From Thermoplasmata archaeon (GTDB lineage Archaea; Thermoplasmatota; Thermoplasmata; UBA10834): a stretch of DNA of 64,000 nt. The position numbers and the translations under genes were made by a program. Below, in pieces: positions 20,920-37,200 of this stretch (within the stretch, counting starts at the first letter, position 1; every line of letters begins with the position of its first letter). The stretch is from the NCBI GenBank assembly GCA_041304525.1, contig JBFYNF010000045.1, forward strand, positions 7,479 to 71,478, in the 5' to 3' direction. The notes below the pieces were generated by a model. The model did no database searches. It was given only the letters and a program-made list of their open reading frames with translations, and was not told where the DNA came from.

Positions 20920-21534
20920 ATGAAGAAGATATCCAAACCCAGAAGGGTGCGGATGGGCGAAGAGGCCGAGATGGGGGTCGGGACATTGCTGATCTTCATC
21001 GCGATGATACTTGTCGCGGCGGTTGCCGCGGGGGTGCTCGTCCAGACCGCGTATGTACTACAGCAGCAGGCGGAGTCGACAGGAGATCAAGCACTGATGG
21101 AAGTGGCAACGGGATTCAGAATACTCGCGGCGTACGGGGTGACGAACCTATCGGTCCCTGAGGTGACCGACCTATACATCAAGATAACCTTGGCGGCAGG
21201 TAGCCCGGTCATCAACCTCGAGCACGTGATCATCGAGATCACGAACGGCGACAACGACGTTTCGCTGGCGTTCAATGTCACTGGCTCTGATGTGGATTAC
21301 TTCGGCGCGACACAGATCAGGGACACCTATCCCACGAACGACTGGACCACTGGCGAGCCGGGGATGACACAAGGCGACATCGCCCTCATCCACGTGAACC
21401 TTAGTGCGAACAGCCTCAGTCTGGCGTCGCAGCAGCAGGCGGACCTGTTGATCATCCCGAAGCACGGCATACCGACATACCTGTCGGTGGTTGCGCCGTC
21501 AGTGCTCTCGAACACCTACGAGAACCTCACCTAG
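20920..21534 (+). CDS. flaB: archaellin (FlaB/ArlB) 1
   Basis: Class III signal peptide and conserved hydrophobic N-terminus EMG|[26 protein letters not shown], followed by a beta-rich domain. Confidence 0.9.
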   Translation: MKKISKPRRVRMGEEAEMGVGTLLIFIAMILVAAVAAGVLVQTAYVLQQQAESTGDQALMEVATGFRILAAYGVTNLSVPEVTDLYIKITLAAGSPVINLEHVIIEITNGDNDVSLAFNVTGSDVDYFGATQIRDTYPTNDWTTGEPGMTQGDIALIHVNLSANSLSLASQQQADLLIIPKHGIPTYLSVVAPSVLSNTYENLT

Positions 21535-21557
21535 AAGGCTTTGAAGGATGTGATTCC

Positions 21558-22019
21558 ATGAACGAGGACGGGGAAGCCGCGTTGGAAGTGATTTCGGTCG
21601 ATTCGAGGACCAACATCATCACGATGCGGTGGCTCTCGTTCCTCATGGACAAGATTGACCCTGAGGCATTGCCTGAGCTGTTCGTCTTCTACAAGAGGAT
21701 AGGGTGGCTGGGAACGCAGGCAGCCGCGTACATGTCTGCGTTGGCCGAAGGGGCGAAGCCCGAAGCGCCTTCTGAAGAGCAGGCGCTGATGGAAGAGGAC
21801 GTCGAAGACCACAACCTCCTGATAAGGAGAGGGACCGATTCCGGAAAGGAACCGATGGTGGAAGAGGTCGACTGGCGGCTGACGCCCGAGGACCACATCA
21901 AGTGCTGGATGTTCATGATGGAGATAGCCGGATTGGACGTCGATAGGAACACTTGGGTAGAGGTCGACGAGCGCATCAGCCGGTTCGAGAGAAGGCTCGC
22001 GGACTACTACAAGGTATGA
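21558..22019 (+). CDS. FlaD/FlaE-family archaellum accessory protein (short form)
   Basis: TMRWLSFLMDKI...FYKRIGWLG...DWRLTPEDHIKCWMFMMEIAGLDVD aligns with the C-terminal FlaD/E domain of 25285..26442. Confidence 0.65.
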   Translation: MNEDGEAALEVISVDSRTNIITMRWLSFLMDKIDPEALPELFVFYKRIGWLGTQAAAYMSALAEGAKPEAPSEEQALMEEDVEDHNLLIRRGTDSGKEPMVEEVDWRLTPEDHIKCWMFMMEIAGLDVDRNTWVEVDERISRFERRLADYYKV

Positions 22020-22151
22020 TACTCTGTAGGTGCTCCGCCGCTGCGCTGAGAGAGGCAAACATACACACAGGGCATCCGAACGTACCTGGACCAGGCTTCG
22101 GCCAAACCCTTTACAATTCTGATTTTCTCCCGTGAAAATCACGGCTGGTCG

Positions 22152-22161
22152 CCTTATATAT
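22152..22161 (+). promoter_or_regulatory. TATA-like box upstream of giant archaellin gene
   Basis: CCTTATATAT lies about 45 nt upstream of element copy 2 and about 205 nt upstream of the ATG. Confidence 0.45.
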
Positions 22162-22202
22162 CAACGGCCCTGATTGAATATCAACAGCCTCCAACGCATC
22201 TC

Positions 22203-22230
22203 GAGGCACTATCCACAGGGCATGTAGACC
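22203..22230 (+). repeat. archaellin-leader conserved element, copy 2 (28-nt form)
   Basis: GAGGCACTATCCACAGGGCATGTAGACC. The 22-nt core is identical to copy 1, and all 28 nt are identical to the reverse complement of copy 3. Confidence 0.8.
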
Positions 22231-22365
22231 GTAGGCTCTCGTCCTCAGGACGAGCTAGTAGGCAGGTCCGTAGGACCTGCCCATTCTGATAGTGTCCCAC
22301 GTTGGTGACCGCTGCAATCCGAACATAGCCACGTTCCATGCCCTCCAAACACGGAGAGGACTGGG

Positions 22366-24087
22366 ATGGGGCTTCGCAAGATCCGACAACTGAGGGCACA
22401 GGACGAAGAAGCCGATATCGGTATCGGTACTCTGATCATCTTCATCGCGATCGTACTAGTGGCGGCCATTGCGGCATCGCTCATACTGTACGCGGCCGCG
22501 CTGCTCCAGGAGCAGGCTGAGAGGACCGCGGACGACGCAGTATCGGAAGTGGCTGGTGGCCTGTCGGTCATCAACATAGCGGGTGACCGAAACCCGGACG
22601 GAGAAGCGTCGACGATAGTCTCGGGATACATGCCGGTGACTGACAACCATGCGCCCATCGGTGGAATACTATGGAATGTCACAGCCTCGACCGACGGGAC
22701 GTCAGTACTAGGGGTTGCCCTGAACTGGACCCCTGCGAACGATTTCGGGTCAGGGTTGTACGAGGAGATCGTGTACCGCACCTCCGTGTACGATCCCACC
22801 AACCCGGCCGTATTCAACGAACAGATCGCAAGGAACCGTCTCTTGACGCTCGACCAGCTGAACCCATCCATGGAGCTCGTCAGGCTCGGCGCGGGTTCCA
22901 GGTCTACCGTCCAATACACTGACTACACCGTTAGGGACGACAACTCGACCTCCTACGCCTACGCCATAGTGGGCGTGGACAGGGCGGGGAACGTCGTACT
23001 CTACACAGCCATCGACAGCTCCACCTCCACGGACGGCTCGTCGCATGACGAGGACCTCGTGCCGCCCTCCGGCGGCTCGATGACGAGCACTGCCAGGCCC
23101 GACGAATATTCAGTGGCGCTGTTCTGGGTGCCTGCGAGTGACGGCGCGAGCGGAATAGATGCTCAGAGGCTGTACAGGACCGAGGGGGCTGTGAGCTCTC
23201 TGCCTATAACCATCCAGGATGGAAGGACCGTGGTGACTGTCCCAGTCACGGTGACACTCTTGGAGGAGTTCAATTCCACCACATCGAGTCACGTCGACGC
23301 TCCCTCTGAGATCGGGGTGTACACGTACTTCATCGTGGTCCGAGACAACGCTGGGAACGAGGAGTTCATCGGCACCCTCAGTTACGACGCGCAGACGGTC
23401 GATTCGAACCCGCCCGAGAACGCAGGGTCGGTATCCGTCAGACAGGCCCCACAGTCAATGAACATATCCTGGACGGAGGCGACCGATGCGCAGACGGCTG
23501 TCTCTTCGTACCTGATCTTCAGGAGCACGAGTATCGGCACCCTTGACACGATTGAAGAGCTCATGACCATGGCGCCGTTGGCGGAGCTCGACTCGAGCGC
23601 CGGGAACTACTCCGACTACTCCGGTACGTCGGGCACGCTCTACTACTACGCAGTCGTGGCAGTCGATTCCGCCGGCAATTACGCTCAGTCCTCGATGCCA
23701 TCCAACACCATACAGATGATCGAGATCAAAGTCAAGACCGTCCCGGGAAGCAGGCCTGTGCAGTTCACGACCATGATGATCGAGATAACCGATGGCATGA
23801 CCGATGTCACCCTGAACTTCAACTCCGGTCAGTTGGGGGCCTCCGGCGCGACCGCCACCATGTTCTCCGCAGAGATCCTGAGGGATCCCGACAGCACCTT
23901 CGCCACCACATTCTCACTCTACGATGGTGCCCTAGTGAAGGTCTTCATCGACGCGGGCGAGATTGGATTGAGCCTGCATGCGGACTCGTCGTTCTCCCTC
24001 AAGTTCATACCGGCAATCGGGCAGCCGACCCTCGAGGAGTGCAGGATACCATACCTCGGTACGTATAGGTACGTAATACTCGTGTGA
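22366..24087 (+). CDS. flaB: giant archaellin (573 aa) with three FN3-like domains inserted
   Basis: Archaellin N-terminus ADIG|IGTLIIFIAIVLVAAIAASL and archaellin-like C-terminal domain (IQMIEIKVKTVPGSRP...ITDGMTDVTLNFN). About 360 aa between them hold three repeats with an FN3-like pattern (L.W.PA.D..SG....YR ... Y.Y.VV.VD.AGN). Confidence 0.8.
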   Translation: MGLRKIRQLRAQDEEADIGIGTLIIFIAIVLVAAIAASLILYAAALLQEQAERTADDAVSEVAGGLSVINIAGDRNPDGEASTIVSGYMPVTDNHAPIGGILWNVTASTDGTSVLGVALNWTPANDFGSGLYEEIVYRTSVYDPTNPAVFNEQIARNRLLTLDQLNPSMELVRLGAGSRSTVQYTDYTVRDDNSTSYAYAIVGVDRAGNVVLYTAIDSSTSTDGSSHDEDLVPPSGGSMTSTARPDEYSVALFWVPASDGASGIDAQRLYRTEGAVSSLPITIQDGRTVVTVPVTVTLLEEFNSTTSSHVDAPSEIGVYTYFIVVRDNAGNEEFIGTLSYDAQTVDSNPPENAGSVSVRQAPQSMNISWTEATDAQTAVSSYLIFRSTSIGTLDTIEELMTMAPLAELDSSAGNYSDYSGTSGTLYYYAVVAVDSAGNYAQSSMPSNTIQMIEIKVKTVPGSRPVQFTTMMIEITDGMTDVTLNFNSGQLGASGATATMFSAEILRDPDSTFATTFSLYDGALVKVFIDAGEIGLSLHADSSFSLKFIPAIGQPTLEECRIPYLGTYRYVILV

Positions 24088-24129
24088 TTCTTGGAAGCCA
24101 GTCGTCCCGGAATCAACGCGGAGCGAATC

Positions 24130-24158
24130 AGGGGTGAGAATCACCCCTAGTAATTTTT
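24130..24158 (+). terminator. hairpin plus T5 terminator after giant archaellin gene
   Basis: AGGGGTGA-GAA-TCACCCCT (8-bp stem), followed by AGTAATTTTT. Confidence 0.55.
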
Positions 24159-24166
24159 CTGAATAT

Positions 24167-24178
24167 TTGTATAATAAT
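24167..24178 (+). promoter_or_regulatory. AT-rich TATA-like region upstream of flaB3 leader
   Basis: TTTGTATAATAA lies within the only AT-rich stretch (24151-24187) of this intergenic region. Confidence 0.4.
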
Positions 24179-24217
24179 GTTTATGACTTGTCCTCTCGAT
24201 AGTAAGGGCTCGAGAGA

Positions 24218-24245
24218 GGTCTACATGCCCTGTGGATAGTGCCTC
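24218..24245 (-). repeat. archaellin-leader conserved element, copy 3 (inverted)
   Basis: The plus strand reads GGTCTACATGCCCTGTGGATAGTGCCTC, the exact reverse complement of copy 2. Flanked by GAGAGG/CCTCTC. Confidence 0.8.
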
Positions 24246-24566
24246 TCAAGCCAACCTTGGGAGGCACATCTCTCTCACTCCCCGCTGTAGGGCACGGCGG
24301 TTGCCTCGGAGGTGAGGCGTGAGGACCTGGTAAACACGATTGACCTGGTTGCCGCCAGAATCGATTGATCGCCCCAGAGCAACGACGTGCCAAGTACGGG
24401 GTACAAAACCGTGTGTTTTGGACCTACATCGAGCAGAGGAAGCTCTCGATGTCCCGCCTGTGGCGGGGGAGCCAGGATCGGCTCTGACGATCCCCGCGCC
24501 GGCAGGTTCGCCGGTCGTCCCTCAGGTACGGAACCTGGGAAAGATGCGAGATTGGAGGAAGAAAGA

Positions 24567-25181
24567 ATGCAGAAACTAGCATGGAAGAAGAGGAAGATGG
24601 AAGAGGAAGGTGAGATGGGTGTTGGTACCCTTCTGATCTTCATCGCCATGATACTCGTAGCCGCTGTGGCCGCGGGTGTACTGGTTCAGACCGCATACAA
24701 GTTGCAGCAACAGGCTGAGAGCACCGGTAACGAGGCACTGCAGGACGTCGCCACGGGCTTCAAGGTCCTGACTGTCTGGGGAACCACGGGCACTGGTGGG
24801 AACATCACTGACGTGTACCTGAAGATCGCCCTTACGGCGGGCAGCCCCGGCATCAACCTTGCAGACGCCAAGATCGAGGTCATACAGACAATCGGCGGAA
24901 CCACTGCCTCTGAAGTGACCCTTGATTATGTGGACGGCGCGCCATCGGCATCGGCGTTCAACGCAACTGTGCTGAGGGACATGGCTCCGTCGACGACTGC
25001 CGCGATGATGACCTCTGGCGACATATTCCAGGTCCACCTTGACCTCGAGACGATGGTCATGGGTCTGGATGTCCAGGAGCAGCTCTCTGTGTTGCTGATG
25101 CCGAAGCACGGTGTCCCAACACTGTGTGAGATAACTGCGCCCTCGACGCTCGAGGCAAGCAGCGTGGTTGTCCTGAAGTAG
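24567..25181 (+). CDS. flaB: archaellin (FlaB/ArlB) 3
   Basis: ATG at 24567 preceded by [26 protein letters not shown]|[26 protein letters not shown] is identical in protein to flaB1 over the N-terminal helix. Both are 204 aa. Confidence 0.9.
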
Positions 25182-25203
25182 AGACACAAGCCTCTGCGAA
25201 CCC

Positions 25204-25255
25204 GTCAGGGCATCACCAAACCCCTCCCTTTCTGGGAGGGGGATGGTGCCCTGAC
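25204..25255 (+). other. long imperfect hairpin between flaB3 and flaC/D/E
   Basis: GTCAGGG..CACC..CCCCTCCC-TTTCTG-GGGAGGGG..GGTG-CCCTGAC, giving 7+4+8 bp with small internal loops. Confidence 0.4.
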
Positions 25256-25284
25256 TAGAGAGCACGGGGAAATGGTGTAAGGAA

Positions 25285-26442
25285 ATGGCTGGCCTGTTCC
25301 GCAAGAAACCAGAGAAAGACGGTTCCTCCGCAAGAAGGAAGCTGAAAGGCTTCGAGGAGGGATTCGAAGAGGAGGCGGAAGAGGGGGCCTACGAGGAGAC
25401 TGAGACTAGCCAGAGAGCCGACAAACTCGTCAGCGCGGAAGATGAAGACTACTTGGGAGAGGACGAGGCCAGCGGCGCAGGTCTCGCAGGCGTCAAGGAG
25501 CTAAGCGAGCTCATGGGACGCCTGGAGGAGATCGAGGACAAGATGGGCCGGATCGACTCCGCTCTCACAACGGATCGGAACGAGAATGCCAAGGTCCGGG
25601 ACCGGCTCAATCAGATGGAACAGGACATCAGGAAGCTCCTTTCCGTCTACGAGGTCGTGTCCACCAAGTTCAACCCCTTCCTAGATGTCTCCGAGAAGAC
25701 CCCCCCACCTGTCCAGCCCCAACCGGCTGTGATGCCTGAGCCCGCTCCGTTCGCTCCAATCGAGCTGGACGGGGACATACCGGAGTTCCGGCCATATCAG
25801 GAAGGGGAAGTGGAGCCGCCCACCTTCAATGGCAAAGGGCCCAAGGCCAGCCGCGACGCCGCCCCGTGGGAGCCAGGGACGTCAACCGCTACCGTTGAGA
25901 CAGTGTTCTCCGGACCCAGGAGAGAGCCCCCACCGACACTCGACAAGACCTCGAAGGACGAGAAGTATGAAAGGCAGGTGAGAGCGTCCGCGAGGAGCAA
26001 ACACAACAAGAAGCCGCTCCTTGCGTACATCCCACACGACTACCTGACGCTGGTCCTCGTGATGCGCTGGATAGAGTTCCTGTTCGAGCGCGTGACCAGG
26101 GAAAGGATGTCGCTCGTGCTAGACTACTATGTCGATGTAGGATGGATCAGCGAGGACGTGAAATCAGAGATCATGTCCTACGCGCGCGGAGAAATGCAGG
26201 ATGTGACCAAGTACATGGGCCAAGAGGAGGTAAGGGAGGACGTGTTCCGCGACCTCCCGCCGCCGACAGCGGCCCCGTACAAGAAGGTCGAGGACTGGCG
26301 TCTGTCCGCAGACGACCACCTGAAGTCCCTGCTGTTCGTGCAGAAGATAGCCGGACTAGAGGTTGACAAGGACCGCCTTAACTCCCTCGAACAGAACATC
26401 TCCAAATTCAAGGAGAGTCTGGAGGGCTTTCATGGGGTTTAG
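25285..26442 (+). CDS. FlaC/FlaD/FlaE-type fusion protein (ArlCDE-like)
   Basis: N-terminal coiled coil ending LSVYEVVSTKFNPFLD (FlaC-like), a Pro-rich linker, then the FlaD/E domain (LVMRWIEFLF...YYVDVGWISEDV...DWRLSADDHLKSLLFVQKIAGLEVD). Confidence 0.8.
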   Translation: MAGLFRKKPEKDGSSARRKLKGFEEGFEEEAEEGAYEETETSQRADKLVSAEDEDYLGEDEASGAGLAGVKELSELMGRLEEIEDKMGRIDSALTTDRNENAKVRDRLNQMEQDIRKLLSVYEVVSTKFNPFLDVSEKTPPPVQPQPAVMPEPAPFAPIELDGDIPEFRPYQEGEVEPPTFNGKGPKASRDAAPWEPGTSTATVETVFSGPRREPPPTLDKTSKDEKYERQVRASARSKHNKKPLLAYIPHDYLTLVLVMRWIEFLFERVTRERMSLVLDYYVDVGWISEDVKSEIMSYARGEMQDVTKYMGQEEVREDVFRDLPPPTAAPYKKVEDWRLSADDHLKSLLFVQKIAGLEVDKDRLNSLEQNISKFKESLEGFHGV

Positions 26443-27622
26443 TGTCTCGGCTACAATGGCGATATTCTTCGCCGCCTTTCTAATCCTTTTTTCTATTCTT
26501 TATTCCTCTTTGAACGACGCCTTCGACTCTGTGTCGGAGTCGTTCGATGAGAAGTACGAATACATGAACGATCGACTCGATACGCAAGTGACGATACTCG
26601 ACGTCAGTTACCAGAGGGACTCAAACACCCTAGATATCAGGGTCCAGAACACTGGCAGCAAGGTCCTGGACATATCCAAGGTCGACCTGATTCTGGAAGG
26701 GGCCATCCCCACGTCGTTCAATAAGACCATCCAGGGGACGGACACAGAGGTTTGGCTCCCGACTGAGGTCCTCACGATCACTGTCGATGATCCCGATGTG
26801 TCATTCGAGACTGACCTCGACCCGCGCGCTTCGCTCACCAATGACGCCTCCCTGTCTGCCCCCTCGAATGTCTCCGTTGGAGAGAGCGTCTACGTCCTGG
26901 ATGGACAGGACATAGATGTCTTCACGCTCGGAGGTGTCTTCGATTTCACGATTACAGACTCATCAAACATGGTCTCGCCCTCTGACCTGAAAGTGTGGGG
27001 AGATTATCTCTACGTACTGGACGAGGGCACACACATCGATCGGTTCGGACTCGACGGGGCTTGGGTGGACCGGATAGTGAACGACACGACGAACTCGTCC
27101 ATCCTGACCTCATTCAGCGTCGATTCCGAGTACATATACATCATAGACAACAGGAGCCACATCGACCGGTATGGCCTGGCCACAGGAATATTCGTGGACT
27201 CGATTGTGCCGAACGGAGGCACGATGACATCGCCGCGAGACATCTTCGTCAGCTCGCACATCTTCGTGATCGACTACAGTTCGGGATACCATGTTGACGT
27301 GTACGAGCTGGACGGCAGCGGAGGGACGGAGTTAGTCGGCACGGTAGGGCTCTCGTCGCCAACGGATATCTGTGCCAGCGCGAACGGCCTGGACGACGTG
27401 TATGTGTATGTCGTCAACGGATCGAGCGAGGTGGCCGTGTTCAACGCAACGGGGTCGCCCGTGGACATAGTCGACAGCCTGCTGAGCGACTCTGTGATCG
27501 CCGTAGACGTCACAGGCAAGATGTATGTCTCTGACAATGTGAATGGACTCGTCGTGGAGAACCTGGGTACTAACATCAAAGTGGTGGTAGAGAATGGAAT
27601 CTCATGTGTCACAGTGCAATAG
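26432..27622 (+). CDS. flaF: FlaF-like protein fused to six-bladed NHL-like beta-propeller
   Basis: N-terminal TM helix plus an FlaF/G-type beta-sandwich (TQVTILDVSYQRDSNTLDIRVQNTGSKVLD). Six ~40-aa repeats of the form sP.d..v....iYViD....hIdrF.l.G follow. The start overlaps the upstream stop. Confidence 0.65.
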   Translation: MGFSVSATMAIFFAAFLILFSILYSSLNDAFDSVSESFDEKYEYMNDRLDTQVTILDVSYQRDSNTLDIRVQNTGSKVLDISKVDLILEGAIPTSFNKTIQGTDTEVWLPTEVLTITVDDPDVSFETDLDPRASLTNDASLSAPSNVSVGESVYVLDGQDIDVFTLGGVFDFTITDSSNMVSPSDLKVWGDYLYVLDEGTHIDRFGLDGAWVDRIVNDTTNSSILTSFSVDSEYIYIIDNRSHIDRYGLATGIFVDSIVPNGGTMTSPRDIFVSSHIFVIDYSSGYHVDVYELDGSGGTELVGTVGLSSPTDICASANGLDDVYVYVVNGSSEVAVFNATGSPVDIVDSLLSDSVIAVDVTGKMYVSDNVNGLVVENLGTNIKVVVENGISCVTVQ

Positions 27623-27631
27623 GAGGTGGAG

Positions 27632-28072
27632 ATGATGGGCGCAAGCGGAGCATCGACTCAGCTGATATTCTTCATATCCGCGTTGATCGTGGCAACGGCA
27701 GTAGTCGCCGTGGCCGCCAACGGGGTGTCCAAGATAACCAACGGGATAGACCAGAAGAGCGATAATGTGGAGAAGGATCTGCTGACGGACATTTCGATAA
27801 TAAACGACCCTGACGAGATCCCGAACGACCCTGTCAGGATATATGTCAAGAACGTGGGCAAGACCGTCCTGAACCAAAACTATATCACAGTAATGCTGGA
27901 TGGGTTTGCGGTCACGAACTACACGCTGACGCTGAGCGGGAGCACGTTGTCCTACTGGGACCCCGCGAGCATGCTGACGATATCAATAGACCAGAATTTG
28001 GCAGAGGGGGACCATTCGGTACAGGTGACCACCGAGAACGGCGTCTCTGACAAGCTCAGCTTCCGCATATGA
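27632..28072 (+). CDS. flaG: FlaG-like archaellum protein
   Basis: AGGAGG RBS. Archaellin-like N-terminus GASGASTQLIFFISALIVATAVVAV plus a beta-sandwich (VRIYVKNVGKTVLN). Position between flaF and flaH. Confidence 0.7.
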   Translation: MMGASGASTQLIFFISALIVATAVVAVAANGVSKITNGIDQKSDNVEKDLLTDISIINDPDEIPNDPVRIYVKNVGKTVLNQNYITVMLDGFAVTNYTLTLSGSTLSYWDPASMLTISIDQNLAEGDHSVQVTTENGVSDKLSFRI

Positions 28073-28076
28073 CGGG

Positions 28077-28787
28077 GTGAACCCTCCAATGGGGGAGACC
28101 TACAAGCTACAGATACCCAGAGACGACCTACATGACCAGCTAGGTCAGGGCCTCCCCGCGGGAACGATAACGTTGGTCGAGGGAGCGCATGGGACCGGAA
28201 AAAGCGCCCTCGTCCAGCGGATGATCTACGGATTCCTTTCGAACCAACACTCGGTAACGTGCATATCGACGGAGCTGACCGTCAGGGACTTCATCAACCA
28301 GATGTACTCGCTCGACTACCCCATATCCTCATGGCTCCTGAACGGGAAACTGAAGTTCGTGCCTGTGTACCCACTCGTGGGCAAGGCCAGGAAGAGGAGC
28401 GACTTCCTGGGCATGCTGATGGGCTCCGAGGAACTGTACAAGAGTGACATCATGATCATAGATACCTTCTCCAGCCTCGTCAGCAACAGCCTTCATGGGG
28501 AAGACAACAGCATAGGTGTGCTGTCATTCTTCAAGAGACTCACCGGCATGGGTAAGAGCATCGTGGTGACAGTGGACCCGACTGAACTGGACCCTAAGGC
28601 GCTCGCACCGTTCGAGTCGGACAGTCACGTGTATTTGAGCATAATCGTGTCACAGGTCGGCGGGATGATATCCAGGAGCATCATGGTGAAGCGGTTCGGT
28701 GGCACCGAGTACAGGGTGTCCCCGGTCGTGGGCTTCAGGATAGAGCCTAATGTGGGCATGGTCATCGAGATCACATCAGTCGTGTGA
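28077..28787 (+). CDS. flaH: FlaH (ArlH) KaiC/RecA-like ATP-binding protein
   Basis: Walker A VEGAHGTGKSALV, about 235 aa, located upstream of flaI. GTG at 28077 or ATG at 28089. Confidence 0.85.
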   Translation: MNPPMGETYKLQIPRDDLHDQLGQGLPAGTITLVEGAHGTGKSALVQRMIYGFLSNQHSVTCISTELTVRDFINQMYSLDYPISSWLLNGKLKFVPVYPLVGKARKRSDFLGMLMGSEELYKSDIMIIDTFSSLVSNSLHGEDNSIGVLSFFKRLTGMGKSIVVTVDPTELDPKALAPFESDSHVYLSIIVSQVGGMISRSIMVKRFGGTEYRVSPVVGFRIEPNVGMVIEITSVV

Positions 28788-28797
28788 GGTCACGGTC

Positions 28798-30429
28798 ATG
28801 GCGGCGAAGTTCAGCAAGGTCCTGGAACGGAATCCCCACCTGAACGTCTATCTTCAGAGATACGCTCAGGAGACAAACCAGTCGCCGAAGTTCATGGACA
28901 CACTGGGCAGGGATCTCGGGAAGGAGGCGACCGTGGATGTCATCTACCCTGTCGGCGACCCGATATTCATACACCTGCACGGCTCCAAGGACACCGGGCA
29001 CAAGTACGATGTCGTGCAGCCAATGATGGAGGACGAGCTTGGCAAAGCGTACGAGAAGGTCGTCAATAATGTCTTCTTGAAGTCAGGGAAGGAGAAGATC
29101 CACTCGACCGATGAGGAGTTCAACGAGGTCCTGGACAAGCTCCTGAACGAAATAGTCGAGGTCACAGAGAGACGCATCCCCTCGAAGGTCGTACAGCTGT
29201 TCAAACCCAACTCCAAGATCTACGTCACCCCAGATGACTACAGCATCCTGGAGTACTACGTCAAGAGGAACATCCTCCAGAACGGCATCCTCGAACCGAT
29301 ACTCAGGGACCCGTACATAGAGGACATCCACTGCGTCGGCGTCAGGGAGGTGAACCTGTACCACAAGATCCTGGGCATGGTGGAGACGAACATCAAGTTC
29401 TCGAACGTCTCAGACCTGGACAAGTACACCAAGGGGATGAGTGAAAGGATGGGTCGTCCCGCATCGATATCGAGACCGATCATCGACGGCGCCCTCCCGG
29501 ACGGTTCCCGTATCAACATCATCTACGCTGACGACGTGAGCGTCAACGGGCCGACATTCACCATCAGGAAGTTCTCAGCGGAGCCGCTGAGTGCCGCTCA
29601 ACTCTCTGGATGGAACACTGTCTCCGCGCAGGAGGCCGCATACCTCTGGCTCTGTCTCGAGAACGGCATGAGCGTGTTCGTCTGCGGTGAGACCGCCTCA
29701 GGTAAGACGACCCTGCTCAACGCCATATTCCCGTTCATAAGGTACGACCAGAAGATATTCTCGGCTGAGGACACCCTGGAGGTGCAGCCGCCTCACGCCG
29801 TCTGGCAACAATTATCCACAAGGGAGTTCGGCCCGGAGGAGAGCAAGGTGGACACCTTCGCCCTCCTGAGAGCTGGACTCAGGTCCAGACCCAACTACAT
29901 CATCGTGGGTGAGATCAGAGGGAAGGAAGGGAACGTCGCGTTCCAGGCGATGCAGACTGGCATCCCGGTCATGGCGACATTCCACGCCGCCTCCGTCAAG
30001 AGGATGATACAGAGGTTCACCGGCGCCCCGATCAGCGTGCCCATCACGAGCATGGACAACCTCAACGTGGCGGTCTTCCAGGCGGGCGTATACAGGAACG
30101 GGAAGTTGATCAGGAGGACCCTGTCCATCGAGGAGATACTGGGCTACAGCGAGTCGATGGGCGGAGTGATGACCAGGGCAGTCTTCGTATGGAACCCGGT
30201 GAGCGACCAGCACATATTCCGAGGGATGAACAACTCGTTCATACTGGAGGAAAGGATCGCCGTCAAGAGGGGGTACAAGGACAAGAGGGACATATACAAG
30301 GAACTCGCCCTCAGGACCAGGATCATCGAGAAGATGGTCGAGACGAACATGACCTCCTACAAGACAGTCAACGACATCCTCAAGGCATTTCAGAAGGAGG
30401 GAGTGGCCGGCCTGCCGTTCACGGTCTGA
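28798..30429 (+). CDS. flaI: FlaI (ArlI) archaellum ATPase, copy 1
   Basis: Type II/IV secretion ATPase motifs: Walker A GETASGKTT, Walker B/Asp box NYIIVGEIRGKEG, LRDPYIEDIH. The start at MAAKFSKVLERNPHL aligns with copy 2. Confidence 0.9.
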   Translation: MAAKFSKVLERNPHLNVYLQRYAQETNQSPKFMDTLGRDLGKEATVDVIYPVGDPIFIHLHGSKDTGHKYDVVQPMMEDELGKAYEKVVNNVFLKSGKEKIHSTDEEFNEVLDKLLNEIVEVTERRIPSKVVQLFKPNSKIYVTPDDYSILEYYVKRNILQNGILEPILRDPYIEDIHCVGVREVNLYHKILGMVETNIKFSNVSDLDKYTKGMSERMGRPASISRPIIDGALPDGSRINIIYADDVSVNGPTFTIRKFSAEPLSAAQLSGWNTVSAQEAAYLWLCLENGMSVFVCGETASGKTTLLNAIFPFIRYDQKIFSAEDTLEVQPPHAVWQQLSTREFGPEESKVDTFALLRAGLRSRPNYIIVGEIRGKEGNVAFQAMQTGIPVMATFHAASVKRMIQRFTGAPISVPITSMDNLNVAVFQAGVYRNGKLIRRTLSIEEILGYSESMGGVMTRAVFVWNPVSDQHIFRGMNNSFILEERIAVKRGYKDKRDIYKELALRTRIIEKMVETNMTSYKTVNDILKAFQKEGVAGLPFTV

Positions 30430-30447
30430 TCCGCGTTTGCTGGCACT

Positions 30448-30485
30448 GATAGTCAGGCCTGAGAATTGGGCGCCAACCCTTATTA
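30448..30485 (+). repeat. 38-nt promoter/operator-like element, copy A (upstream of flaI-2)
   Basis: GATAGTCAGGCCTGAGAATTGGGCGCCAACCCTTATTA matches 34189-34226 at 33 of 38 positions. It ends in a BRE/TATA-like CCAACCCTTATTA. Confidence 0.7.
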
Positions 30486-30608
30486 CTTCAGGTTCTGGAT
30501 TGGCCTTTGAGGCCACCGAGCGCAGGCTCCACAGGGCTACCTCCGCCCAAGGGTGCGGCATTGGCTCTGCTCAGGAGCCGCTTGAGGCGCCTCAGCGGAT
30601 GGGTGAGG

Positions 30609-32258
30609 ATGCCTGCAGACGAAGCTGGCCTGAAGAAGGCCATGAGGAAGAACCCGCACCTCCTTGAATACGTCCAGGAGTTCGTCAGCAGACACAGGTC
30701 GCCTCCAGAGTTCCACCCCGTGGTCGAACGCAAGATGGGGGACGAGCAGCAGGTCAACGTGATCTACCCGATAGGCGACCCGCTCTTTGTCCATGTGTTC
30801 TCGACAGATAGCATACCCATCAGCTACAAGTCCGTGCAGCCGCCGATGACGCCGGACCTGCAGCCCAAGTACAGAAAGGTCATCCAACAGGTCTACAACA
30901 AGGCCGTCTACATGGACCCGCACGAATCTGTGGAGGAGTTCGAGAAGAATCTCCTGCAGCTGATAGACGCCTCGACAAAGATCTCCGAGAGCAGCACGGA
31001 TGGCGACGGCAAACGCATCTTCGGCGACCTTTTCACGGAGCCAAAGATATTCGTCACCCAGCACGAGCAAGACCTGATCAAATACCATGCGAAGCTGGCG
31101 ATTGTGCTAGCAGGACCCCTTGAGCCACTCCTCAGAGACCCGTACATCGAAGATATCCACTGCATCGGACACGACAACGTCTCCATCGTCCACAAGATAT
31201 TCCAGGCGATGCCGACCGATGTGAAGTTCGAGTCGATGGAGGAACTCGACAACTATGTTCGGGCCTTGAGCGAGAGGATAGGCAGGCCGGCGTCGATGGC
31301 TAGGCCGATAGTGGACGGTACGCTTCCTGACGGGTCACGTATCAACCTCATCTACGCTGACGATGTGAGCGTCAAAGGCCCCAGCTTCTCCATCAGGAAG
31401 TTCGCCGAGGAACCTATAAGCATAACCCACCTGATCGAATGGAACACCATCAGCGCCCAGGAAGCCGCCTACATATGGCTCTGCCTGGAAGAAGGCATGA
31501 GCATATTCTTCTGCGGGGAGACGGCGTCGGGCAAGACGACGACCATGGGCGCGGCCCTCCCATTCATCAAGTACGACAGCAAGGTCTACACGGCCGAGGA
31601 CACCATCGAGATGCAGGTTCCACACAAGGTGTGGCAGAGGTTGGCAACGCGGGACTTCGGCCCTGAGGAGAGCAGGGTCGACACGTTCTCACTGCTCAAG
31701 GCCGCTCTAAGATCGAGACCGAACTTCATCATAGTCGGAGAGATTAGGGGCAAGGAAGGGAGCGTTGCGTTCCAGGCCATGCAAACGGGCCACCCCGTCC
31801 TGTCCACGTTCCACGCGGCATCGACGAGGAAGCTCATACAGAGATTCACCAGCGACCCCATCAATGTGCCCATCACGTTCATAGACAACCTGAATGTCGC
31901 GTTCTTCCAGGCAGGCGTGTACAGGGAAGGTAAATTCCTGAGACGGACGATGTTCATTGATGAGATCGTCGGGTACAACGAAGCGCTAGGCGGGATCATG
32001 ACCCGGACCATCTTCCTGTGGAACGCCGCGGACGACTCTCACATGTTCAAGGGGATGAACAACTCCTACATCCTCGAGGAGAAGATTGCGGTCAAGAGGG
32101 GCTACAGTGACAAGAGGAAGATATACGGTGACCTGGCCCTCAGGACCAAGATACTCGAAGAGATGGTCTCCAGGAAGATATTCAAGTACGAGAAGGTGGC
32201 GGAGATAACCAAGGAGTTCCAGAAGAAGGGGGTGAGCGGCCTACCGTTCCCCGTGTAG
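30609..32258 (+). CDS. flaI: FlaI (ArlI) archaellum ATPase, copy 2
   Basis: Same motifs as copy 1 (GETASGKTT, NFIIVGEIRGKEG) and alignable end to end. ATG at 30609 is preceded by GGTGAGG. Confidence 0.9.
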   Translation: MPADEAGLKKAMRKNPHLLEYVQEFVSRHRSPPEFHPVVERKMGDEQQVNVIYPIGDPLFVHVFSTDSIPISYKSVQPPMTPDLQPKYRKVIQQVYNKAVYMDPHESVEEFEKNLLQLIDASTKISESSTDGDGKRIFGDLFTEPKIFVTQHEQDLIKYHAKLAIVLAGPLEPLLRDPYIEDIHCIGHDNVSIVHKIFQAMPTDVKFESMEELDNYVRALSERIGRPASMARPIVDGTLPDGSRINLIYADDVSVKGPSFSIRKFAEEPISITHLIEWNTISAQEAAYIWLCLEEGMSIFFCGETASGKTTTMGAALPFIKYDSKVYTAEDTIEMQVPHKVWQRLATRDFGPEESRVDTFSLLKAALRSRPNFIIVGEIRGKEGSVAFQAMQTGHPVLSTFHAASTRKLIQRFTSDPINVPITFIDNLNVAFFQAGVYREGKFLRRTMFIDEIVGYNEALGGIMTRTIFLWNAADDSHMFKGMNNSYILEEKIAVKRGYSDKRKIYGDLALRTKILEEMVSRKIFKYEKVAEITKEFQKKGVSGLPFPV

Positions 32259-32265
32259 GTCCTCC

Positions 32266-33927
32266 ATGGCTGCGAGCAAGATGAAGCGTCTCTACCAGTC
32301 CCTCGACATGCCCGTTGAGAAGTACTTCACGAGATACGCTCTCCCGCTCGTGATAGCGGGCATCGGCGCGACTGCCCTGCTGGTCTTCCTATTCCCCGAA
32401 CTGGCGGCCGATGGGCTGTTCAAGTATGTGTTCCTGGCAATCCCTGTCCTCTTCTCGGTCGTGGCAGTAATATACCCGATGCTACAGGGTGAACGGAAGA
32501 AGGTCCAGATAGAAAGGAACATGCACCTGTTCCTCGTCAGGATGAGCGTCCTCTCGACATCGAAGCTGCCAAGGAAGAAGATGCTCGAGATCCTTTCGAA
32601 GGTCAAGGAATATGAAGCGCTCAGCCTTGAAATCGAGAAGATCTACAAGCTCATGGAATACTGGAACATGGGTCTCTCGGACGCCGCGAGGACCGTCTCC
32701 CGCAAGACTCCCTCGCCGATGCTAGCAGATTTCCTCGACAGGCTCGCGCACTCATCCGATGCGGGCGAGGACCTCGAGGAGTTCCTCACCAAGGAGCGGG
32801 AGGTGTCCATGAGCGTCTACATCAACAAGTACGAGACGGCGCTCAAGGACCTCGACCTGCTGAACGAGATATTCGTCGCCGTGCTGATATCCCTGATGTT
32901 CATCCTCGTGTTCGTCGCGCTCCTGCCCGTGTTCGTGGACATATCCATCACCCTCATTCTTCCGGGCGTCGCGCTGCTGTTCGTCATCGTCGAGGGGATG
33001 GTGCTGTATCTGGTCAAATCGCTACTTCCATCGGACCCCATATGGCACAACATCAAGGGGCAGACCGAGATCGACAAGGTGATGAAGTCCGTCCTTCCGG
33101 CGACATACGCGGCATGCATCGGGTTCGCCGCCTTCGGGTTCCTGACGGGCTTACCCCTGATGCTCATAGTCGCGCTTGTCGTCACACCGCTCCTGTATCC
33201 AGGGTTCATGATAAGGAGGGAGGAGAAGCGGGTCAGGGCCAGGGACGAGAACTACGATTCGTTCATGAGGGCCGTGGGCAGCTACGCGGCATCTGCTGGC
33301 TCCGCGGTCACGGATGGCGTCGGCAGGCTGAGCAAGCACGACTTCGGGGAGCTCTCGGAAGGCATAGTGATCCTGTACAAGCGCCTGCTCACCCGGATAG
33401 ACCAGATACGCGCCTGGAACCTGTTCGCAGCCGAGAGCGGGAGCAACCTGATCTCCAAGTTCACGGAGATGTATGTCGTCGGTCTGTCCGTGGGCGGGAA
33501 GGTGGACAAGGTCATCGACATCATCAGCGACAACTTCGTGAAGCTGATGGGCGTCAGGCGCAAGAGGTACCAGTCATCCGACAACATGCTGGGGACATTG
33601 TATGGGATGTCCGTCGGCATAACGTTCACCTTGTTCTCCGCGCTGAGCCTGATGCAACTCCTGAACATCATGAACGAGCAGTTCGCGCTCTCCCAGACGA
33701 CGATCAATCTGCCCATCGCGCTGAAGCCATTCGACCTGGGCCTGGCTGAGGCGGTCTTCCTGCTCATCATGCTCGTGCACTCGCTCATATCCGCGAACCT
33801 CGTCTCCTTCGCCGGCGGCAGCCACAAGCATAGTTTCTACATCAACTTCGCAATCATAACATGGATCAGCACCGTGACGGCCATCGTCACACAGTTGATG
33901 CTCGACAAGGTCCTGAACCTCTCATGA
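32266..33927 (+). CDS. flaJ: FlaJ (ArlJ) archaellum membrane platform protein
   Basis: 553-aa polytopic membrane protein with a duplicated T2SS-F-like organisation, directly downstream of flaI. Confidence 0.85.
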   Translation: MAASKMKRLYQSLDMPVEKYFTRYALPLVIAGIGATALLVFLFPELAADGLFKYVFLAIPVLFSVVAVIYPMLQGERKKVQIERNMHLFLVRMSVLSTSKLPRKKMLEILSKVKEYEALSLEIEKIYKLMEYWNMGLSDAARTVSRKTPSPMLADFLDRLAHSSDAGEDLEEFLTKEREVSMSVYINKYETALKDLDLLNEIFVAVLISLMFILVFVALLPVFVDISITLILPGVALLFVIVEGMVLYLVKSLLPSDPIWHNIKGQTEIDKVMKSVLPATYAACIGFAAFGFLTGLPLMLIVALVVTPLLYPGFMIRREEKRVRARDENYDSFMRAVGSYAASAGSAVTDGVGRLSKHDFGELSEGIVILYKRLLTRIDQIRAWNLFAAESGSNLISKFTEMYVVGLSVGGKVDKVIDIISDNFVKLMGVRRKRYQSSDNMLGTLYGMSVGITFTLFSALSLMQLLNIMNEQFALSQTTINLPIALKPFDLGLAEAVFLLIMLVHSLISANLVSFAGGSHKHSFYINFAIITWISTVTAIVTQLMLDKVLNLS

Positions 33928-34188
33928 GGGAGAAAGGTGAGCGTCCGTCTGCGGTCCATGGCTGGCCTGAAGAGGTTTGGCCACCGAATCTTGCCTTTCG
34001 CAGTCGTCCTCTGAGAGAACGCGCATGGGCCAGCCTCTGGACAGGTTCTGACGAACGCTTGATTCGACTATCCTTAGCGCTTTTCATAAGCGTTTGGCAA
34101 GGAATCTCCGCACTGAGAATCGGTCGAGATTCTCTTCCCCACCCTGTGTCCGGACAACTGGTGTTGTTTCGCTGCACTTGACGCACAT

Positions 34189-34226
34189 GATAGTCAGGCG
34201 CGAGAATTGAGCGCCAAACCTTATGA
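34189..34226 (+). repeat. 38-nt promoter/operator-like element, copy B (upstream of surface protein gene)
   Basis: GATAGTCAGGCGCGAGAATTGAGCGCCAAACCTTATGA. The TATA-like end lies 23 nt before the ATG at 34250, which is consistent with a leaderless mRNA. Confidence 0.7.
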
Positions 34227-34249
34227 GTGGATAGACCTGATTTTGACAT

Positions 34250-37200
34250 ATGGCCACCGTGAGTAGGACGGCGCTCACGAGCACGATGCTCGTTGTTCTG
34301 CTCCTCCCGATGACGCTCATGGTCCTGCTCCAAGGACCGCCGGCGCCGTCCGCTCACGCATTTCCCATAGACGATTTTGGGAGCAGCATCAGACTCACTT
34401 TCGACCAAGCCATATCGACCAACGTATCCTCCAGCGTGGATGACGACGGCAATATACACGTCGTGTGGGAAGACTACAGGTCCGGGGCCGGGGACATCTA
34501 CTACATGAAGCTGGACGACGAAGGCAACAAACTCACCAACGACGCGAAGATATCCAACGACACCACCGCATCCCGGAACCCATCGGTGGCAGCTGACTCG
34601 GACGGACACATATACATCGTGTGGGAGGATGTGGACAACGGCTCGTCTGAGCTATTGTTCGCGAAGCTGTGGTACTACGAGGGCAACATCACATTCCAGG
34701 AGAATGGGCTCCAGGTATCGGACAGCGACCCCGCGAACTCGACTGAGCCGGACATCGCCGTGTGCCAGGACGGCAACCTATCCTTGGTTTGGACCGACGC
34801 TCGGCACGACGCCGGCGACGGCAACCTGGAGATCTACTATAAGCGCCTGAGGATGTCAGGGACCTCTCTCACACCCGATACGCGCGTGACTGGAGACGTT
34901 GGACGGTCTGAACACCCGAGGCTCGATACAGACTCTGATGGTATGGTCCACATCGTCTGGTACGATTTCAGGGACTCCAGTAACGGCCTGGTGATCAACC
35001 ACGGCGTGTTCTACAGGAAGGTCATAATGGACGGCACGCCCCTGACACCCGAGACGAGGATCACCTTCGCTTCACCTCAGTCGAGGCCTGACATAGCAAT
35101 AGACACTGATGGAAACGTACACGTGGTCTTCGACGACGACCGGTATGCGAGTTTCGACATATTCTACACGCTCCTCGACCCTGACGGGAACACACTCGTG
35201 GATGACAGGAACATCTCACCCAAAGACGACAACGAGTCCAGATGCCCCAGGATAGCCCTGAGCGACTCCAACGCAGTCGATGTCGTGTGGCAGGACCAGA
35301 CGTCCGGTCTATGGGCCATCCACTACTCCGCGATGAACTACAACGGTGAAATCGAGGTCTACGACCAAGGACTGACTTCAGAAACGGTCGGGAACGCCAC
35401 CATCCCTGTGGCGATGTGCGCGAATGACAACAACACCCTCGTGATGTATGTGGGCGACTATCCGAACATGGAGGTGTTCTTCTCAAGGACTCACAGGCCG
35501 GATCCGGCGGTGCTCGCGGGCGGGATTTCCATGTCATCCACCCAACCACTGATCGGGACCACTGTCTGGGTCAATGCGACCGTGTGGAACCTCGAAGGGG
35601 ATGCCCTAACGGATCTGGCTGTCCGCCTGATGGTCGATTCGGTGGCGGTCGAAGACGCCACTGTAGCCTACCTAGTAGCAGGGCACTCAACCGTCGTCAG
35701 TTTCTCACACACAGCGTCCGAAGGCGAGACCATCGTGACTGTGGCCGTCGACCCTGATCAGACCGTAAGGGAGACATTTGAGACCAACAACCAACAGTCA
35801 GCCCCTATGCTCGTCCGGACGCCCGGGGTCGTTCTGACGTCCGACGTCAGCAGCCAATCTGCTGAGCCCGACGAGACGGCCATATTCAACATCACAATCA
35901 CCAACGAAGGCAACACGGCGTTCTCATTCTGTCTGTCGAACTCCGAACCTGAGAGCGGCTGGATCATTGACCTGGGTGGCTCGCCTGAGGGCATCTACAC
36001 GGTTCCCGCAGGCTCGTCGGCCGTGGCTACTGTTGAGGTCACGGTTCCCGAGGATGAGACGCCTGGAGCGCGTGCGTTCTCCGTGCTCGCCACATGCGTC
36101 GAAAGAGACTCCGTCAACGACAGCGTCACCCTCATGGTGGATGTCGTCAGGTTCGGCGAACTGACTGTTGTATCGTCCGACGGAGGAGATGTCGAGCCGA
36201 CCATCCCTGAGCTATACACGTTCACTGTCTCAAACTCGGCCAACGCCAATGAGACCTTCGCGGTCTCGGCCTCCGACCTCCTCGGATGGGACCTCGTCGC
36301 TTCCCATGACGAGCTGGAGCTCGCACCCGGTGAGGAGGCTGAGGTGTCCGTGCTCGTGACGCCTGCTAGGTACGATCCCCCGGGCACACTGAATACGCTC
36401 ACGTTGACCCTGTCATCCATGAACTTGACCTGGAACACAGTGGAAGGGAACTTACTCATGATCGTGGGGCATCACTGGGAGGTCGACGCCAAGCTGACGC
36501 AACAGGCGTTCCTCAACATGTCTGTGCCAGATGAGAGAGAGGTCAGGTACATCCTCGATGTGACGAACCTAGGCAACTCAGATGATGTGTTCAGGCTGAG
36601 TCTATCGGGGATTGATGCGTTCTGGGCCACCCTGAACACGACCTATGTGTTCCTCGGAGCCGGGGACGAGCAGCAAGTCTACATATCCCTCACACCAGGC
36701 GTGGACGTGCTCGCAGGCGCATACCCTTTCAATGTGACCGTCGTGTCGGAATCCGACGACAATGCGACGGAGACCCTGGAGATGGGAGTGTCCGTGTTGC
36801 CGTTCTACGACATCTCAGTATCGGCTGAGTTCGCACAGGTGAGCCTACGACGAGGAGAGACCGCGTTCGTCAACCTGACGGTCCGGAACACCGGCAATTC
36901 GGCGGATGTCGTCGACCTGTACGCGTACGTGGGCGCCCTAAACACGACAACGGCTACCTTTGTGGGTGAGGTGGTGTCACTGGAAACGGGAGACCCCATC
37001 CTCATCGCTCTGGAACCCGGAGGGTCTGCCACAATCATGCTGACGATACCGGTTCCCGGAGATGTCGAGATCGGCTTGCAGGACTTGTGCATGGACTTCA
37101 GTTCCATGACCGACCCGAGCGTTATGGCATCTCAGACCGTCAGTGTGCTAGTAGAGGATGACCCGTCTTGGTTCACTCTGTGGGTCATACTGATCATAGT

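Follow-up and report, generated by a model that had tools for sequence, protein, structure and literature searches.

Tandem paralogs of the archaellum motor ATPase ArlI in Thermoplasmata of the order UBA10834

Analysis of a 64-kb stretch of Thermoplasmata archaeon contig JBFYNF010000045.1 (assembly GCA_041304525.1; hereafter the window, meaning the whole stretch analyzed, whose positions serve as coordinates) revealed an archaellum locus with two adjacent genes, arlI-1 and arlI-2 (flaI copies a and b), which by family assignment, predicted fold and genomic context are both bona fide full-length ArlI/FlaI archaellum motor ATPases. The pair is shared by related genomes, and its two members have diverged in a conserved manner under strong purifying selection. 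We favour, with moderate confidence, the reading that they belong to a two-ATPase motor with specialized ArlI paralogs.

Two full-length ArlI ATPases in one archaellum locus

Both copies are encoded between arlH and arlJ, with arlB, arlCDE, arlF and arlG upstream, at distances of 10 nucleotides (nt) from the arlH stop codon to the start of arlI-1 and 7 nt from the stop of arlI-2 to the start of arlJ. The original prediction, namely two tandem full-length FlaI proteins of 543 and 549 amino acids sharing one FlaH and one FlaJ, proved exact in lengths and coordinates: arlH and arlJ each occur once in the window and arlI twice, a search of its 64 kb for a third ArlI homolog found none, and the single status of ArlH and ArlJ refers to the window and the compared loci. 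A TTG start at position 30507, giving an ArlI-2 of 583 amino acids, was rejected in favour of the ATG because the additional segment is not conserved, being broken by in-frame stops in every relative.

The two proteins share 56% identity and 74% positives from end to end (BLASTP) and belong to the Pfam family T2SSE. Scored with NF058587, the NCBI equivalog model of FlaI (cut-off 550 bits), ArlI-1 and ArlI-2 reach 725.3 and 709.0 bits, respectively, and the next-best family of both, bindosome BasE, whose cut-off is 1000, reaches about 156 bits. The closest sequence in the PDB is in both cases Sulfolobus acidocaldarius FlaI 4ii7 (E = 2.5e-112 for ArlI-1 and 1.2e-115 for ArlI-2), which together with 4ihq represents the best solved relatives of both copies. 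The AlphaFold2 (AF2) models, with pLDDT (predicted local distance difference test) values of 86.1 and 85.5, show an identical order of secondary structure elements, and the two-domain FlaI fold, consisting of an N-terminal domain with helical bundle and a RecA-like C-terminal domain, is complete in both. Foldseek alignments of the two models extend over 527-531 columns with template modelling (TM) scores of 0.74-0.87, the top match being 4ii7 for ArlI-1 and 4ihq for ArlI-2 (TM 0.82-0.87). An origin of one copy from a pilus system, which had been named as an outcome that would overturn the prediction, finds no support: both proteins exceed the FlaI cut-off, and in a tree composed of ArlI only the two copies form sister clades beside the archaellum ArlI of DHVE2, the exclusion of pilus ATPases resting on the family-model scores.

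That a single flaI is the norm in archaellum operons, as the original prediction assumed, agrees with the literature. Makarova et al. (2016) reported that FlaI, FlaH, FlaJ, FlaF and FlaG occur as single copies in all archaea with an archaellum (PMC4858521), and archaella were described as single-ATPase systems, in contrast to adhesive pilus systems, in a paper of 2025 (PMC12448462). The tree published in Nature Microbiology in 2025 used only loci with one ArlI and one ArlJ (PMC12488501), a filter which implies that multi-copy loci had been seen and were left undiscussed. Full-text searches of the literature found no description of a duplicated arlI or flaI.

Conservation and origin of the tandem pair

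The exact ArlI-2 protein is present in two independent assemblies, a 255-kb JGI contig (Ga0105107_10000001, 3300009087) and a 29.5-kb Logan contig (SRR5468439), both with the same succession of arlH, arlI-1, arlI-2, arlJ and a gene for a surface protein. A scan of GTDB species genomes provided 79 loci (designated by L numbers), which were compared with ArlH, ArlI-1, ArlI-2 and ArlJ of the window by tblastn. The order arlH-arlI1-arlI2-arlJ was found in 13 related Thermoplasmata metagenome-assembled genomes (MAGs; L001, L002, L004-L008, L010-L013, L015 and L016), and the proteins of L010 are 98-100% identical to those four of the window. In line with this, a protein search retrieved ArlI-1 orthologs (99-74% identity) and ArlI-2-type proteins (about 57%) in pairs, the members of a pair being on contigs of equal length. 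L008 (UBA10834) and L009 (UBA9653) are members of the GTDB order UBA10834, a non-methanogenic relative of Methanomassiliicoccales (bioRxiv 10.1101/2020.03.09.984617), and the organism of the window is accordingly assigned to this order.

Two loci were considered as single-copy members of this clade and rejected. The contig of L003 ends just past the conserved motif of the spacer between the two genes, and that of L009 (DUKU01000024.1, MAG UBA9653) is 96.6% identical to the window over 3476 nt and unrelated from the middle of arlI-1 onward, so that it is probably chimeric. In L016 (CAWFTI010000001.1, a long-read MAG) arlI-1 is split by a single frameshift, due to an error of sequencing or to genuine loss of the gene's function; all other complete loci of the clade have both open reading frames intact.

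A neighbour-joining tree was constructed from 110 ArlI sequences of the loci (533 columns, 100 bootstraps, Kimura-type distance correction, no pilus ATPases). Copy a and copy b were each monophyletic (97 and 99% bootstrap, respectively), the two were sisters within archaellum ArlI (a+b, 97%), and together they grouped with the single-copy ArlI of DHVE2/Aciduliprofundum (97%). Since the subtrees of the two copies are congruent, with L012 basal in both, the tree indicates that the pair arose by a single tandem duplication at the root of the clade, in the ancestral lineage of the order UBA10834 and after its split from the single-copy DHVE2/Aciduliprofundum lineage. Within the clade, the sequences of copy a are 79% and those of copy b 78% identical. 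Ratios of nonsynonymous to synonymous substitution rates (dN/dS, Nei-Gojobori) lie at 0.05-0.09 over both copies (0.05-0.09 for ArlI-1 and 0.05-0.08 for ArlI-2), the C-terminal domain being at about 0.03-0.05 and the N-terminal domain at 0.09-0.13. Both copies have therefore been under strong purifying selection since the duplication.

Sequence divergence of the two paralogs

The Walker A motif GETASGKTT, the Asp box AEDT(L/I)E, the Walker B motif IIVGEIRGKEG with the catalytic Glu, the second His of the HIS box (TFHA) and the motif LRDPYIEDIH are present in both copies. In the 70-sequence alignments R238, R257, R342, R362, R364 and R374 are invariant, and the catalytic acids and all conserved arginines are intact in both copies. 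The earlier statement that the motifs are intact in both proteins holds for Walker A, for Walker B/Asp box and for LRDPYIEDIH, and fails at the HIS box, whose first His is lost from ArlI-1: ArlI-2 possesses the canonical box QTGH...TFHA with His395 (QTGHPV), whereas ArlI-1 carries Ile389 (QTGIPV). Each of the 13 crown-clade loci has isoleucine at position 389, as have all 42 orthologs retrieved, and Asn or Leu is found there in the deep branches of copy a. Conversely, the first His is present in 42/42 single-copy ArlI sampled, a sample skewed toward relatives of the query. To judge from its sequence, ArlI-1 is still a member of the ArlI family, yet a derived one. In Geobacter PilB the threonine of this TGH motif is at the interface and lies between the two histidines of the HIS box, and the box mediates inter-chain cooperativity (PMC5424180); the change in ArlI-1 would therefore sit in an element coupling neighbouring subunits, and not in nucleotide binding as such.

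The 137 alignment columns that are invariant in the 42 single-copy ArlI were used as a reference for altered sites. ArlI-1 departs from six of them (A96S, V222A, S253T, G273N, A360G and H389I) and ArlI-2 from eight (R157Q, V222A, T255S, G273N, L307M, N308G, V329M and M403L), among which T255S lies in the FTIRKF arginine-finger strand and L307M/N308G directly after Walker A. As anticipated in the original prediction, the ATPase domains are similar and the N-terminal domains more diverged: the identity of the clade consensus of copy a to that of copy b is 27-50% per 30-residue block over approximately the first 230 residues, about 53-87% per block in the ATPase core and no more than 33% in the terminal 40 residues or so. 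Despite this divergence the N-terminal domain, the part presumed to face ArlJ (PMC8978795), is conserved within each copy, with a charge of -5.6 in copy a and -2.7 in copy b. Overall, 63 sites are fixed differently between the copies; the DHVE2 outgroup matches the state of copy a at 28 and that of copy b at 14 of them, which suggests that ArlI-2 is slightly more derived overall than ArlI-1. The paralog-specific differences are concentrated in the N-terminal domain and in the inter-subunit and nucleotide-sensing motifs.

The spacer and the predicted promoter of arlI-2

The spacer between the two genes, 179 nt long in the window and 179-215 nt across the clade members, is mostly variable and contains one strongly conserved block, TGATAGTCAG-N3-TGAGAATTG-N6-AA-N3-(C)TTATAAC, with GAGGCCRCCGAGCA...GCTCC located about 27 nt further; the promoter-like element that had been proposed for this spacer is thus strongly conserved across the clade. 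The upstream motif of the block, TGATAGTCAG-N3-TGAGAATTG, whose core is identical in 14 related spacers, including that of the basal L012, is a candidate transcription-factor site. The adjoining element, resembling a transcription factor B recognition element (BRE) with TATA box, reads GCGCCAACCCTTATTACT in the window (CTTATAAC in relatives), with a TATA-like TTATTA at 30480-30485; in its conserved form, CTTATAAC/CTTATTAC, it has CCAAC before it.

The motif occurs twice in the window, against 0.02 occurrences expected by chance. The second occurrence, at 34188-34209 with one mismatch, belongs to a further module with BRE/TATA-like element situated 27 nt upstream of the ATG of the surface-protein gene (34250). 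A 42-nt local alignment of this second module to 30442-30483, including mismatches and one gap, scored 57, the maximum for shuffled sequences being 25. Counting the BRE/TATA-like element, the modules extend over 30447-30487 and 34188-34227, follow the motif variant TGATAGTCAG-N3-(T/C)GAGAATTG and have GGCCACCG in common at the predicted start. The second module is kept 3' of arlJ in L002 (position 15414), L005 (15423), L010 (15392), L013 (15412), L015 (15449) and L016 (13580). From its conservation and repetition, the 42-nt module looks like a regulator binding site and a duplicated promoter, and arlI-2-arlJ probably has its own promoter. These two genes would then be transcribed as one unit, in joint regulation with the gene of the surface protein, and the genes from arlCDE through arlF, arlG and arlH to arlI-1, which overlap or are separated by no more than 10 nt, would be on a separate upstream unit. 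Since the BRE/TATA-like element stands exactly 27 nt before the ATG at 34250, a geometry to be expected of leaderless transcripts in archaea, the mRNA of the surface-protein gene is predicted to be leaderless.

For arlI-2, transcription is predicted to start about 27 nt past the TATA-like element, near 30507-30510 at the conserved GAGGCCRCCGAGC, leaving a 5' untranslated region (UTR) of about 100 nt. This predicted UTR begins with the invariant GAGGCCRCCGAGC-N4-GCTCC and would form an invariant GAGC/GCUC hairpin together with a GAGGC/GCCUC closing stem, the likewise invariant GCCUC being located some 20 nt before the start codon. The two stems, derived with RNAalifold, exhibit no covariation, every pair being invariant. 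The segment is non-coding, with in-frame stops in relatives, and a conserved upstream reading frame at the predicted transcript start was rejected, as an ATG is present only in L003, L004, L006 and L011 and the peptides are not conserved. No known RNA element was identified in the spacer with Rfam (E <= 1 over 20-38 kb, with one chance match elsewhere), and a scan of the spacer for sigma-70 promoters and terminators found nothing, these being bacterial models from which nothing is expected for an archaeon. Duplication of a segment comprising arlI, arlJ and the promoter, followed by loss of the first arlJ, would be a simple origin of the present arrangement.

Tandem arlI pairs in other archaeal lineages

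Two adjacent ArlI genes between arlH and arlJ were found in 33 of the 79 loci. Besides the window clade, these include 12 loci of Ca. Methanoperedens (L036, L038-L041, L043-L046, L048, L050 and L056), one of Methanosarcinales (L069), L061, L073 and a second group of Thermoplasmatota (L052, L058, L076, L078 and L079). All ten of the copies from other lineages that were tested passed the FlaI equivalog cut-off, scoring 652-746 bits. In the neighbour-joining tree the a and b copies of each lineage form their own strongly supported clades with single-copy relatives nearby, and these pairs are therefore regarded as duplications separate from that of the window, which brings the number of independent ArlI duplications indicated by the tree to at least five, the window clade included. 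In these other lineages the copies are 44-57% identical to each other, and their genes overlap or lie 3-6 nt apart (-19 to +6 nt), except in L052 (134 nt).

The first HIS-box His has also been lost from copy b of Methanoperedens and L069, where it is replaced by Asn, and of L073, where it is replaced by Leu; T255S recurs in T3_b, L061_b and L073_a. Three independent losses of this His in paralogs, as opposed to none in the 42 single-copy proteins, suggest that duplication releases an otherwise absolute constraint. A rule by which the upstream copy is the derived one was rejected, the His being lost upstream in the window clade and downstream in Methanoperedens and L073.

A different duplication within the same motor was observed in loci of ANME-2/Methanosarcinales, where a single ArlI is preceded by two or three tandem ArlH (KaiC-like) genes (L033-L035, L037, L042, L049, L051, L054, L059, L060, L062 and L065).

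Functional interpretation

The specialization of the two paralogs within one motor, to which we lean, is supported by the 63 fixed differences, the HIS-box change, the convergent loss of the same His and the separate promoter-like module. As a tentative elaboration, for which we would claim appreciably less, the two ATPases may engage a common ArlJ platform, one during filament assembly and the other during rotation, in the way that PilC of bacterial type IV pili serves PilB, PilT and PilU. ArlI-2, with canonical catalytic motifs and inter-subunit HIS box, would be made together with ArlJ from its own promoter, along with the downstream surface protein; ArlI-1, with its altered HIS box (His389 to Ile) and its diverged, more acidic N-terminal domain, would be made with the products of the stator, switch and arlH genes. 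This division by phase is preferred because the separate promoter, the strongly diverged N-terminal domains and the precedent in the ATPase superfamily fit it.

Several points weigh against such a reading. The organism is uncultured, and its sequence does not assign assembly or rotation to either copy. The promoter and the transcription start are deduced only from conservation and BRE/TATA geometry, the tree is a neighbour-joining tree with simple distance correction and not a maximum likelihood one, and the asymmetry in derived states (28 in copy b versus 14 in copy a) is only marginal. Moreover, the ATPase-domain surfaces of the two copies are very similar, with nothing seen that would prevent co-assembly, and the tight packing of the genes in the other lineages, L052 aside, is seen more often with stoichiometric partners and speaks, for those lineages at least, in favour of a mixed ring.

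Such a mixed hexamer of ArlI-1 and ArlI-2 is the main rival of the division by phase and only slightly less probable. In an alternating a-b-a-b-a-b ring, for example, every nucleotide site would be at an a/b interface, and the HIS-box change of ArlI-1 and the FTIRKF and post-Walker-A changes of ArlI-2 would be co-adapted, building asymmetry into the motor. Both copies evolve at equal rates and each is altered at a few of the positions invariant in single-copy ArlI, the identity per block is high in the ATPase domain, and the gene spacing in the four other duplications, L052 aside, is that of stoichiometric partners. Paralogs of homomers usually retain cross-assembly, although we are aware of no demonstrated hetero-hexamer among members of the PilB/PilT/GspE/FlaI family. 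The altered residues lie in motifs that sense the nucleotide of the neighbouring subunit, the HIS box and the arginine-finger strand (PMC5424180); however, the symmetry of the solved ArlI hexamer is two-fold, not three-fold (PMC8978795), and the conserved promoter-like module between the genes in the UBA10834 clade permits unequal dosage. That same module, together with the full ArlI architecture retained by both copies, would suit interchangeable isoforms expressed from different promoters under different conditions, with sequence differences that tune kinetics. We regard this as improbable, because the single arlJ stands behind arlI-2 and the single arlH before arlI-1, so that neither unit encodes a complete core, and because a His invariant in 42 single-copy ArlI has been lost here and, convergently, in two tightly coupled lineages; where there is no room for a separate promoter, such a loss argues for a functional and not merely regulatory difference.

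It is still less credible, and in our judgement very improbable, that each ATPase serves a different filament, either the archaellins ArlB1/ArlB2 of about 204 residues versus one of 573 residues, or a pilus other than the archaellum. The locus does encode three archaellins, of which the 573-residue one is unusual and conserved in the clade. Nevertheless, the copies are sister paralogs inside archaellum ArlI that both exceed the equivalog cut-off, the platform protein ArlJ is single, and neither copy is adjoined by a pilin gene or another tadC-like gene. The proposed service to different archaellins gains nothing from co-occurrence either, and an association of the second ATPase with the giant archaellin was rejected on these grounds: a similar archaellin is encoded in the single-ArlI locus L026, and the dual-ArlI loci of Methanoperedens lack one. 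Finally, an assembly duplication or an incipient pseudogene, the former having been raised with the original prediction, deserves almost no weight. Beyond the frameshift in copy a of L016 nothing speaks for it, whereas 56% protein identity is too low for a repeat that was collapsed or duplicated, both independent assemblies and 13 related genomes show the identical arrangement, and the low dN/dS of both copies and their intact reading frames in all other complete loci are at odds with decay.

How one ArlI hexamer assembles and then rotates the filament is an open question in the field, ArlH being no more than a proposed switch (PMC8978795). Throughout the order UBA10834, two diverged ArlI paralogs have been retained by selection with a single ArlJ and a single ArlH. 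The change in ArlI-1 affects the subunit-coupling motif, and two of the other four independent duplications, among them that of Ca. Methanoperedens, show it in one copy as well. Enrichment cultures exist for Ca. Methanoperedens, and the protein pairs lend themselves to the study of homo- versus hetero-hexamers, of ATPase kinetics and of ArlH and ArlJ binding. Should the roles be split, these would be natural separation-of-function systems in which the question of assembly and rotation could be directly tested; if they are not, a well-supported exception to the single-ATPase rule remains. The more general proposition, that recurrent duplication either separated assembly from rotation or built an intrinsically asymmetric, hetero-hexameric rotary motor, is, as it stands, rather unlikely.

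Layout of the locus and neighbouring genes

Matches to Pfam and NCBIfam identify a complete arl1-type archaellum locus around both arlI genes (Table 1), whose upstream architecture (20920-28072) is kept in all loci of the clade.

Table 1. Genes and predicted regulatory features of the archaellum locus (window positions; all features on the + strand)
Feature	Position	Strand	Basis
arlB1	20920-21534	+	Pfam/NCBIfam matches
arlD/E-like gene, 153 amino acids	21558-22019	+	Pfam/NCBIfam matches
Giant archaellin gene, 573 amino acids	22366-24087	+	Pfam/NCBIfam matches
arlB2	24564-25181	+	Pfam/NCBIfam matches
arlCDE fusion	25285-26442	+	Pfam/NCBIfam matches
Long arlF, 396 amino acids	26432-27622	+	Pfam/NCBIfam matches
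arlG	27626-28072	+	Pfam/NCBIfam matches
arlH (flaH), KaiC-like ATP-binding protein	28077-28787	+	NF052589, 248 bits (cut-off 215); Pfam KaiC
arlI-1 (flaI copy a), ATG start, 543 amino acids	28798-30429	+	NF058587, PDB, AF2/Foldseek, motifs
Spacer between arlI genes, 179 nt	30430-30608	+	Clade alignment
Upstream motif TGATAGTCAG-N3-TGAGAATTG, candidate transcription-factor site	30447-30468	+	Spacer conservation
BRE/TATA-like element GCGCCAACCCTTATTACT	30470-30487	+	Conserved spacer block
Predicted 5' UTR of arlI-2, about 100 nt	30507-30608	+	Start predicted near 30507-30510
arlI-2 (flaI copy b), ATG start, 549 amino acids	30609-32258	+	NF058587, PDB, AF2/Foldseek, motifs
arlJ (flaJ), polytopic membrane platform protein	32266-33927	+	NF004704, 554 bits (cut-off 550)
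Second motif with BRE/TATA-like module	34182-34224	+	Motif at 34188-34209, one mismatch
CARDB-containing surface protein gene, 1033 amino acids	34250-37351	+	N-terminal signal or transmembrane segment; C-terminal transmembrane anchor

Several neighbouring genes display features of their own. The giant archaellin combines a normal archaellin N-terminus and a C-terminal part around an insert of about 350 residues with weak Ig-like/fn3 matches; it is 51-66% identical across all clade loci, and the similar gene of L026 belongs to a DHVE2-like locus. Between arlB1 and the giant archaellin gene lies the clade-conserved gene with an ArlD/E domain, additional to the arlCDE fusion. ArlF is considerably longer than the usual 140 residues or so, owing to a C-terminal extension of about 260 residues kept across the clade and made of repeated Y(V/I)(L/I)D...(H)ID(R/V)(F/Y) units of beta-propeller-like appearance, which might replace the S-layer anchoring of the stator. 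The surface protein is of the CARDB and 'choice-of-anchor' type, with a basic tail following its membrane anchor; its gene, always found directly 3' of arlJ in the clade, has its promoter motif in common with arlI-2, and the product may be an envelope partner of the archaellum.

Comparison with known systems

The clade-wide two-ArlI archaellum is moderately unusual. It is made of known families in a canonical arl1-type operon and departs from current descriptions by its second motor ATPase; equally undescribed in the literature found are the recurrent independent duplication of ArlI and the convergent loss of the HIS-box His from one copy. In the canonical arl1-type operon, as in Pyrococcus furiosus, Methanococcus and Haloferax, the same families occur in the order arlB-arlCDE-arlF-arlG-arlH-arlI-arlJ, with arlF before arlG and an arlCDE fusion; ArlH and ArlJ are single there too, and the core motifs and fold of ArlI are those of S. 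acidocaldarius FlaI (4ii7/4ihq). The locus described here differs from it by the two ArlI, the promoter-like module before arlI-2-arlJ, the His to Ile change in ArlI-1, the 573-residue archaellin and the long ArlF.

Two paralogous ATPases per platform protein, as with the two ArlI and one ArlJ of the window, are known from the type IVa pilus, in which PilB, PilT and PilU, paralogous hexameric ATPases of the same superfamily, share the work on one platform, the ArlJ homolog PilC; pilT and pilU are paralogs arranged in tandem, with PilU dependent on PilT (PMC6762196). PilB and PilT are, however, paralogs of ancient origin that differ in their N-terminal domains and work in opposite senses, in extension and retraction, whereas the window pair is 56% identical, retains the full ArlI architecture in both copies and belongs to a rotary machine without known retraction, for which the division of labour is inferred. 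Closer in taxonomy, the type-IV-filament locus of the Thermoplasmatota member Cuniculiplasma divulgatum codes for a pair of ATPases, CdiPE1 and CdiPE2, beside one platform (PMC12448462), and a locus of Aciduliprofundum boonei likewise has two ATPases and one pilin beside one platform (PMC4858521); both specify adhesive pili, unlike the archaellum of the window. The tandem pairs of Methanoperedens and the other lineages are further counterparts, with the same arlH-arlI-arlI-arlJ order and both copies passing the FlaI equivalog, but they would stem from independent duplications and are devoid of an internal promoter spacer, apart from the 134-nt gap in L052, and in Methanoperedens it is the downstream copy that has lost the His, as opposed to the upstream copy in the window clade.

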